Shown here: piece after piece, positions 33,101 to 33,138 of the stretch | How positions within the stretch are numbered: the stretch's first letter is position 1 | Layout of the letters: each line of letters begins with the position of its first letter | Source: an uncultured Clostridia bacterium | Lineage (GTDB): Bacteria > Bacillota > Clostridia > TANB77 > CAG-508 | Assembly (NCBI GenBank): GCA_944392085.1 | Contig: CALXVN010000002.1 | Coordinates: 1-41,795, forward strand | Direction of reading: 5' to 3' | DNA: 41,795 nt | Made by a program: the position numbers and the translations under genes | Notes under the pieces: model-generated | Databases searched by the model: none | What the model was told of the DNA's origin: nothing | What the model saw: only the letters and a program-made list of their open reading frames with translations

Positions 33101-33138
33101 ACCTTATTGCACAAAATCAAAGTTTTGCGCAATAAGGT
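33101..33138 (+). other. Candidate attR / recombinase core site: 13-6-13 imperfect palindrome
   Basis: accttattgcacaaaa, centre tcaaag, then ttttgcgcaataaggt. 15/16 of the arm positions are complementary. Confidence 0.6.

Follow-up and report, generated by a model that had tools for sequence, protein, structure and literature searches.

The window analysed here, a 41,795-nt stretch of an uncultured Clostridia bacterium (contig CALXVN010000002.1), contains a filamentous (inovirus) prophage at 27063-33103, a palindrome at 33101-33138 that marks the right-hand end of this prophage, and a gene for a Xer-family tyrosine recombinase at 40730-41719. The palindrome is very probably the dif site of the host chromosome itself, to judge from its sequence and location. 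We consider it likely that the site is a dif analogue at the replication terminus, that the recombinase encoded at 40730-41719 is the enzyme most likely to act on it, and that the inovirus, which is without an integrase, uses the site by way of the host Xer recombinase.

The palindrome is composed of two 16-nt arms, ACCTTATTGCACAAAA and TTTTGCGCAATAAGGT, which are complementary at 15 of 16 positions and enclose the 6-nt centre TCAAAG (33117-33122). It belongs to attR, the presumed functional dif-type site (33101-33160, + strand), in which the left arm is phage-derived and the right arm, followed by the flank ATAGGAATCAAAAG, is that of the host. At the left end of the prophage lies attL (27044-27076, + strand), a hybrid site made up of the arm TTATTGCACAAAA (27044-27056), the centre TTAAAG (27057-27062) and a degenerate, phage-derived arm, ATATGTGGCAATTA (27063-27076). 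Good arm and centre together form the left-end repeat TTATTGCACAAAATTAAAG (27044-27062), which is identical to 33104-33122 at 18 of 19 positions; this 19-mer was present in two copies in the window (0.25 expected). The window's palindrome has the layout of dif-type sites, with two inverted arms of about 11 bp around a 6-8-bp centre, and it is the one full site in the window. The initial annotation, made from the sequence alone, had placed a palindrome at the right end, a hybrid at the left end and a further arm copy at 40695-40707, and all three were found where it had put them. It had described the palindrome as 13-6-13; the palindromic core was upheld, but not its size, which is 16-6-16 in this particular lysogen and 10-11 nt per arm in the core of the site family.

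The exact core TTGCRCAAAA occurred four times in the window (0.37 expected), a number that was reached in none of 100 shuffles, and all four occurrences fell in the three described sites, namely the left end, the right end and the recombinase promoter. The 13-mer arm with up to two mismatches was found nine times (7.2 expected), which is the level of chance, so only near-exact arm copies are informative. A frequent arm motif had been named in advance as grounds for rejecting the site, and the near-exact motif proved not to be frequent in the window. A match to the arm within a coding sequence, cited earlier as a caveat, lies at 2678-2689 rather than at 2688-2699 and does not contain the 10-nt core. 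The canonical Firmicute dif was not found in the window with up to three mismatches allowed, in line with the earlier remark that the site does not resemble it.

The uninterrupted form of the site was recovered from a metagenome contig of a closely related strain, L001 (L-numbers are labels of the compared loci and contigs). The Rho protein of this strain is identical to that of the window, and the DNA left of the site is 98.5-99.6% identical. The L001 contig passes directly from window position 27062 to window position 33104, with the insert missing, and reads GGTTATTGTT-TTATTGCACAAAA-TCAAAG-TTTTGCGCAATAAGGTATAGG. The junction combines the left flank of the window with the right arm of the window, and the join lies inside the palindrome. 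Comparison with a relative that lacks the prophage had been set beforehand as a refutation test, and the L001 allele matched the predicted junction. This empty allele carries the whole palindrome, which is therefore what the host site looks like when nothing interrupts it. L001 and the window have the left flank in common as far as the centre, in agreement with the earlier interpretation of the left repeat and its degenerate second arm as a phage/chromosome hybrid. Read in this way, attL consists of host arm, centre and phage arm, and attR of phage arm, centre and host arm. The prophage is flanked by a dif and a dif-like hybrid, and dif is intact in a relative without the element, as is characteristic of integrative mobile elements that exploit Xer (IMEXs).

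Two further lysogens, which we take to be independent integrations, bore on the junctions. In a second host background, a phage with an identical Rep (L131/L132) was joined through the same phage arm to a different host arm and flank, TTTTGCGCAATTGGGCATAGG. In a different species (L049), the same prophage, with both junctions, had the centre TCAAAG at both ends, and the TTAAAG centre at attL of the window is therefore a point variant of the strain. The T/C difference had been considered as a phage-specific centre left by a single strand exchange of the kind known from CTXphi, and this idea was dropped on account of the TCAAAG at attL of L049. Exchange of one strand pair and exchange of both would leave the same junctions. 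In sample ERZ28614603 (L002/L130), one contig stops exactly at ...TTATTGCACAAAAT (window position 27057, the crossover point), and another covers 27003-33374. This contig break hints at the assembly-graph pattern that is expected if lysogens coexist with non-lysogens or with excised forms.

One genome per species was scanned with the pattern TTGCRCAAAA-N6-TTTTGYGCAA, and the full site was found at no fewer than 120 loci, compared with about four matches expected by chance (our own estimate, for uniform composition). Among the matches listed, each Bacillota assembly had one site, and the hosts were nearly all gut Clostridia represented by metagenome-assembled genomes, together with Anaerococcus, Oscillospiraceae, Acutalibacteraceae and others. 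The few matches in Bacteroidales, which occurred two per assembly and without a recombinase homologue nearby, look unrelated. The consensus of the window's clade, built from 54 species, was AACA-TTGCaCAAAA-TcAAAG-TTTTGTGCAA-aaAGg.aTAGGagtAaAA. Across the family the arms are symmetric over 10-11 nt and enclose an asymmetric 6-nt centre; in the window's clade this centre is conserved (TCAAAG), and so are about 25 nt beside the site on the right flank alone. Other clades have the same arms and different centres; those of Anaerococcus are TTATTA or TAATAA, between perfect 15-nt arms. We propose that sites of this family take the place of the canonical Firmicute dif in Anaerococcus and in many of the Clostridia.

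The comparative data bear on the reading that the matches are chance products of AT-rich DNA or the palindrome a bidirectional terminator hairpin, with the direct repeat of the prophage an ordinary target-site duplication. The chance frequency of the 13-mer with up to two mismatches would suit this reading, and the palindrome could fold as a hairpin; however, the excess of exact cores is confined to the described sites, and the full site recurs in at least 120 genomes. Moreover, the empty allele is one whole palindrome and not a single copy of a duplicated target, and an intrinsic terminator would need a T-run, which does not follow the site, whose arms are rich in AT. The reading is already contradicted by the comparison of genomes, and we regard it as extremely improbable.

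The site is a non-coding sequence that is conserved across related species while the neighbouring genes vary. Its right-hand neighbours differ even between strains that are 98.5-99.6% identical on the left. In no fewer than 20 species of the clade (L010, L017, L036, L039 and L048 among them), the distance from the rho gene (24984-26879 in the window) to the site is a few kb at most, and rho lies on the side opposite the conserved flank. The left neighbourhood is on this evidence conserved chromosomal backbone, and the right side is highly variable.

The location of the site was assessed by composition and gene orientation. Cumulative GC skew in the window rose over the first 33 kb, reached its maximum at about 33 kb, at the site, and then fell; the genes before the site, which include uvrA, secA, prfB and rho, are on the + strand, and those after it are mostly on the - strand. 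This position of the site, at the switch in GC skew and gene strand, was missed by the initial annotation. Among the matches listed, 50 Bacillota loci had at least 1.5 kb on either side of the site and could be tested; the skew changed from positive to negative across the site in 46 of them and from negative to positive in none. Long open reading frames (ORFs) at the listed matches amounted to 224 kb on the + strand against 48 kb on the - strand to the left of the site, and to 36 kb against 233 kb to the right. In the complete genome of Anaerococcus vaginalis (CP066014.1), the site lies at about 997.86 kb of 1,893,964 bp, or 52.7% of the record, and the sign of the skew flips there. The same kind of evidence, a switch in composition and gene orientation at the replication terminus, served to identify difSL, difH and the dif of Legionella (PMC1914069, PMC9765430). 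Because the site is at the replication terminus, it is taken to be the dif-type site of the host itself and not just an attachment site for a phage.

An alternative would be that the palindrome serves as the attachment site of mobile elements that bring their own integrase, or as a conserved operator, and that it lies near the skew switch by coincidence. Remnants of mobile elements and extra half-sites are plentiful at the locus, and in many species site and promoter of the neighbouring gene overlap, which is what an operator would show. Against this stand the switch at 46 of the 50 Bacillota loci and in the complete genome, as well as the single copy per assembly and the conservation across orders among the matches listed. 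The inserted phage is also without an integrase, the crossovers fall inside the site, and the neighbouring gene is of the Xer family. We therefore consider this alternative very unlikely.

The candidate enzyme is encoded on the + strand at 40730-41719 (329 aa from the ATG; the ORF opens at a GTG at 40721). The protein contains the Pfam domain Phage_integrase (6.7e-41) and SAM-like N-terminal domains, and the residues R-K-H-R-H-Y were present when the translation was read by eye. Its scores against the NCBIfam models fell below the curated cut-offs for XerC (TIGR02224; 239 bits, cut-off 335), XerD (TIGR02225; 217, cut-off 330) and XerS (NF003462; 164, cut-off 267), and narrowly so for XerA (NF040815; 208, cut-off 220). 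Against structures in the PDB it aligned with XerD at 130 bits, with XerA at 126 bits and weakly, at 59 bits, with XerH. Site-adjacent homologues from Anaerococcus, L066 and L075 were likewise under the curated cut-offs.

Homologues of this recombinase were counted inside an 8-kb block around each site. Among the matches listed, a homologue was present in 49 site-bearing loci and in none of the non-Bacillota matches, and in 29 species the site lies 20-345 nt upstream of the start of the homologue. The initial annotation had proposed the XerC/D-family gene 7.6 kb away as the partner of the site, and this proposal was strengthened by the finding that genes of its family lie directly downstream of the site in these 29 other species. 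Where gene and site adjoin, the site is placed just after or just before the -10 element; as the gene starts 20-345 nt downstream in most relatives, the site lies in the promoter or leader of the recombinase gene. Tight linkage of site and gene is regarded as the hallmark of the single-recombinase modules XerS/difSL and XerH/difH (PMC5357621). A single recombinase is proposed here because the arms are near-identical and symmetric and because the site is tightly linked to the gene; judging from the arm sequences, one recombinase is probably bound to both arms, as is the case for XerS, XerH, XerA and XerL. We infer binding and cleavage of the site by the product of 40730-41719, and likewise the role of attR as the lysogen's functional dif; the order and number of strand exchanges, the need for FtsK/SpoIIIE or for a phage-encoded activator, and reversibility stand at the same level of inference.

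Several observations weigh against this assignment or against parts of the scheme. In the window, 7.6 kb of DNA lie between the site and the recombinase gene, and at the orthologue loci L125-L127 (91% identical) no site was found within 10 kb of the gene, so the linkage in cis is not universal. Other tyrosine recombinases, paralogues about 40% identical to that of the window, are encoded about 1.25 kb away from the site, a distance that is constant among the loci, as a tandem pair in L001 (4906-6921), L008, L033, L047, L082 and L121 and as a single gene in L115. The Anaerococcus homologues are named 'XerC' by NCBI. GC skew and gene strand, on which the terminus position rests, are correlated and not fully independent measures, and the predicted circular attP junction had no match in IMG/VR or in JGI metagenome contigs.

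The first three of these observations would be accommodated if the terminus dif and its use by IMEXs are real and the enzyme is not, or not only, the product of 40730-41719, being instead a XerC/XerD-like pair encoded elsewhere or a paralogue pair like that of L001. The distance of the gene from the site, beyond 10 kb from any site in the closest orthologue loci, and the paralogues at about 1.25 kb would both fit such an arrangement. The two conserved flanks are unlike each other, with AACA to the left of the site and AAAGGNATAGGA to the right, which could mean two different partners in binding, and canonical XerC, the name given to the Anaerococcus homologue, works together with XerD. However, the 10-15-nt arms are near-perfect inverted repeats (15/15 in Anaerococcus), a pattern of single-recombinase sites and not of a XerC arm paired with a XerD arm. 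The site also lies directly upstream of homologues of this particular gene in species of several families, and a copy of the arm lies on the promoter of this gene in the window, L024 and L119. We consider a different or additional enzyme unlikely, though less so than the other alternatives, and retain the recombinase of 40730-41719 as the leading candidate.

The loci with paralogues have a different right-hand neighbourhood, and a half-site of the left-arm type, AAACT-TTGCACAAAA, lies between, about 600-1000 nt from the site. The paralogue locus may be a separate integrative element or a second recombination module.

The prophage (27063-33103, + strand; repeat-to-repeat unit 6,060 bp) has the features of Inoviridae-like phages, with a G2P-type Rep, a Zot/pI-type ATPase, a small hydrophobic candidate coat protein and a genome of 5-10 kb. 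The rolling-circle replication initiator Rep of the G2P family is encoded at 31331-32368 on the + strand (Pfam Phage_CRI, 4.6e-17; PHROG 702, 2e-29), and the Zot-like ATPase of 301 aa at 27831-28736 (PHROG 197, 4e-5). A 63-aa ORF at 27445-27636 is mostly hydrophobic by inspection and had a borderline match (E 0.008) to an uncharacterised PHROG; its assignment as coat protein is based on its position and composition. The remaining ORFs, at 27152-27406, 28897-29061, 29072-30853, 30853-31155, 32380-32670 (- strand) and 32830-33021, encode small and large proteins without a family match in Pfam or PHROGs. No integrase or recombinase family was found among the prophage ORFs in searches of Pfam and PHROGs, and the element is in this respect, too, like an IMEX. 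The earlier comparison with integrase-less filamentous phages was supported by the matches to Rep and Zot and by the lack of a recombinase gene. The DNA of the prophage is similar to bajarodino virus 41 and to porcine Inovirus records. In bajarodino virus 41, a complete circular inovirus whose Zot-like protein is 53% identical, no arm copy was found, and not all related phages therefore use the site.

Inovirus genes adjoin the site in seven other species (L005, L014, L022, L037, L049, L077 and L089), always in the same orientation as in the window and always on the side opposite the conserved flank. Homologues of Rep with 54-64% identity lie beside the same site in L014, L022, L037 and L089. 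The inovirus of L037, whose Rep is only 54% identical, is bounded at one end by the good arm TTGCACAAAA, the centre TCAAAG and the degenerate arm TATTTGGCAA and at the other by a full site, with 6,283 bp between the ends. A related inovirus contig from IMG/VR (L003) ends on both sides in TATAATTGCGCAAAATAATAA, that is, in the arm and the centre TAATAA, which is one of the centres of the Anaerococcus sites. A BLAST search with the site against phage records gave no match.

Mirror-image hybrids were observed on the flank side of the site, where a degenerate arm is followed by TCAAAG, TTTTGTGCAA and the native flank at 0.6-3.7 kb from the site (L079, L081, L056, L093, L110, L021 and L028; in L079 there are hybrids on both sides of a full site). 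From these hybrids it follows that small elements of 0.6-3.7 kb also integrate from the flank side. A full site of the same family, CCTAATTGCACAAAA-TTATAT-TTTTGCGCAATCA, was also present on the 8.3-kb plasmid pATHE01 of Caldicellulosiruptor bescii (NC_012036.1; L140, 3002-3035), where it occupies a non-coding stretch upstream of a CopG gene. Plasmid multimers may be resolved at this site by means of the host recombinase.

Under the proposed mechanism, the host Xer-family recombinase would bind both arms of dif and, at the terminus, resolve dimers of the chromosome. The phage, in its double-stranded replicative form, would offer an attP in which the same centre stands between a strong arm and a degenerate one; the predicted attP junction reads ...AAAATATACCTTATTGCACAAAAT[C/T]AAAGATATGTGGCAATTA... 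Recombination of attP with dif by the host Xer would insert the phage. The attL product, which would combine host arm, centre and degenerate phage arm, would presumably be inactive, and the attR product, with phage arm, centre and host arm, would be complete and would keep resolving dimers, so that the host would stay viable and open to further insertions. In the lineage of the window, site and gene would have become separated by the present 7.6 kb, with a half-site alone left at the transcription start of the gene.

This half-site was examined together with the promoter of the recombinase gene. A consensus sigma-70-type promoter, TTGACA-16-TATAAT, lies upstream of the gene at 40665-40692 (+ strand; 12/12 hexamer matches). 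The isolated right-arm half-site, TTTTGTGCAATTA (40695-40707, + strand), begins 2 nt after the promoter and 22 nt before the ATG, at the predicted transcription start, and matches the inverted arm at 12 of 13 positions, so that the inverted arm copy reported earlier at this promoter is real. In L024 and L119, whose orthologues are 87% and 78% identical, the same 13-mer, TTTTGTGCAATTA, is found upstream of the gene, each time at a different distance from the ATG and between unrelated flanks, and it was absent from the orthologue loci L125-L129. In species in which site and gene adjoin, the full site has its right arm at this position. The interpretation of the half-site is the part of this analysis in which we have the least confidence: it may have been left over from an ancestral dif-xer module, may act as an autoregulatory half-operator, or may combine the two, and we favour a remnant to which the recombinase may still bind at the transcription start of its own gene.

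The interval 33.1-40.7 kb was also considered as a recent IMEX ending at the promoter half-site. This idea was rejected because most of the interval, the DNA from 35.0 to 40.6 kb, is kept at 79% identity beside the site in another species (L106), and because the half-site is without the TCAAAG centre and the AAGG flank of true hybrid junctions. The block conserved at 79% DNA identity beside the site in L106 (34945-40555), which lies between dif and the recombinase gene in the window, encodes a DUF2207 membrane protein whose tail is rich in glycine, a saccharopine-dehydrogenase-like protein, an unassigned 220-aa protein and a glutathionylspermidine-synthase-like protein. Closer to the site, a 239-aa ORF at 33662-34381 (- strand) consists solely of the C-terminal ATPase domain of a DnaB-type helicase (Pfam DnaB_C; PHROG 19) and is probably a truncated remnant of a phage or mobile element.

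A conserved non-coding motif of 31 nt, AAAACGGCTTAAAATCGATTCTCGTGCGTCG, lies to the right of the site within a conserved block of about 90 nt. The window has a proximal, diverged copy at 33262-33292 (+ strand; AAAACTCCTTAAAATCGATTCTGAAGCTTCA) and a distal, consensus copy at 33439-33469 (+ strand; AAAACGGCTTAAAAGCGATTCTCGTGCGTCG). The motif was present at 63 of 122 loci among the matches listed, with 0-2 mismatches across species, at a distance of 90-450 nt; its orientation never varied, and it was always found on that side of the site which has the conserved ATAGGA flank (for example at about 3959-3989 in L001, and in L040). Often there are two or three copies about 170-190 nt apart, and of 154 distinct copies of the core more than 85% lie within 750 nt of the site. 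An Rfam search of the whole window and around the site gave nothing above threshold, and two weak matches at the palindrome were hairpin artefacts; folding of the motif region on either strand gave no consistent structure. Some paralogous copies have compensatory flanks around the core CTTAAAATCGATTCT; the commonest variant is without them, and the motif was for this reason not called an RNA or a terminator. An accessory sequence, an operator and a small RNA are all conceivable roles for it. Inside the recombinase gene, a coding stretch (41403-41426; GTTAAAAACGATTCTAAAGCTTCT, encoding GVKNDSKAS) agrees with the motif's proximal variant at 20 of 24 positions, and one copy of the motif core was found in each of the orthologue loci L125-L129 (91% identical). 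The motif-like stretch might reflect gene fragments near dif or a regulatory pairing.

Elsewhere in the window (20127-21165 and 21390-22572), the gene for release factor 2 (prfB) is split into two ORFs in the middle of the PCRF domain and not at the usual early programmed frameshift. The gene for aspartate kinase is also in two pieces, with the same split in the same-strain contig L002. These genes are either real pseudogenes or shared assembly errors.

Of the known systems, the one described here is similar to XerS/difSL of streptococci and lactococci (PMC1914069, PMC2965235), in which a Firmicute has one Xer gene just downstream of an atypical dif at the terminus, with inverted arms, a 6-8-bp centre and inner arm bases ...AAAA / TTTT.... 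Its authors suggested that difSL lies in the promoter or leader of xerS (PMC1914069, PMC2965235), as the present site does with respect to the recombinase gene in 29 species among the matches listed. Unlike XerS, the protein has 329 rather than about 356 aa and scores below the XerS cut-off; the arms are unrelated in sequence and far more symmetric, the taxa are Clostridia and Tissierellia, and site and gene are 7.6 kb apart in the window.

XerL/dif of Legionellales (PMC9765430) is similar in that dif was revealed as the attachment site of an element with a dif mimic, the IMEX LME-1, and in that a terminus site with uninterrupted inverted repeats of 10-12 bp is served by a single recombinase, which is proposed in the present case. 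In contrast, over 400 kb separate xerL and dif in L. pneumophila (PMC9765430), and in the present system the gene usually adjoins the site; the phylum, the arm sequence and the recombinase clade differ, the present protein being close to XerC, XerD and XerA; and XerL/dif has been tested experimentally, whereas the present system is proposed from sequence. The sites of XerA/dif in Archaea (PMC2958812) and XerH/difH in Helicobacter and Campylobacter (PMC3325230) are likewise terminus sites of the 11-6-11 type, used in those systems by a single recombinase, and difH lies near xerH (PMC3325230). The protein comes nearly to the XerA cut-off and aligns with XerA structures about as well as with XerD; it is nevertheless below that cut-off and bacterial, XerH is distant, and the sequences of the sites are unrelated.

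With respect to the prophage, the nearest parallels are the IMEXs CTXphi, VGJphi and TLCphi at XerCD/dif of Vibrio (PMC5357621, PMC4246890), where an integrase-less inovirus is likewise found at dif, one junction is complete and the other a hybrid with a poor arm, and arrays of elements or remnants occupy the site. Unlike in Vibrio, the host site is palindromic and probably served by one recombinase, and the host is a Gram-positive anaerobe. The attP seems to be a single site of the double-strand type with one degenerate arm, closest to the designs of TLCphi and VGJphi. It is not of the CTXphi type, in which two inverted dif-like sites are folded in the single-stranded genome, because the arm copies of the prophage are at its junctions and none is internal.

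The literature searched, by topic as well as by sequence, contained no account of this site, and none of a Clostridial single-Xer system or of Firmicute IMEXs; in sequence the site is unrelated to any published dif found there. The system would work in the manner of XerS/difSL, XerH/difH, XerA/dif and XerL/dif, and the phage in that of the Vibrio IMEXs and of LME-1. We judge it to be a new form of these known systems, because the protein scores under the XerC, XerD, XerS and XerA cut-offs, the site is unlike published dif sites and neither was described in the literature searched. We give roughly even weight to a broader proposal, in which a previously undescribed near-palindromic dif and a single XerC/D/A-like recombinase would replace XerCD/dif in a broad range of Clostridia and Tissierellia and would be used by the first recognised Gram-positive IMEXs, by small non-coding elements whose hybrid sites remain on the other side of dif and possibly, for the resolution of multimers, by plasmids such as pATHE01, with the array of 31-nt motifs as an accessory or regulatory part.

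Chromosome dimer resolution is poorly established for Clostridia. A genome-wide dif prediction of 2011 failed for C. perfringens and C. beijerinckii, and it was implausible for other Clostridium genomes; for C. botulinum E3, the 'dif' it predicted and the skew switch are about 174 degrees apart. If the present interpretation is correct, the replication terminus could be located directly, by means of this site, in hundreds of gut genomes from uncultured bacteria, and the recombinase would make a fifth single-recombinase Xer system, after XerS, XerH, XerA and XerL. It would also explain how integrase-less filamentous phages become lysogenic in Gram-positive anaerobes and would provide a rule for placing the borders of prophages in such genomes, and the compact pair of site and recombinase would be a possible genetic tool for anaerobes that are hard to engineer.

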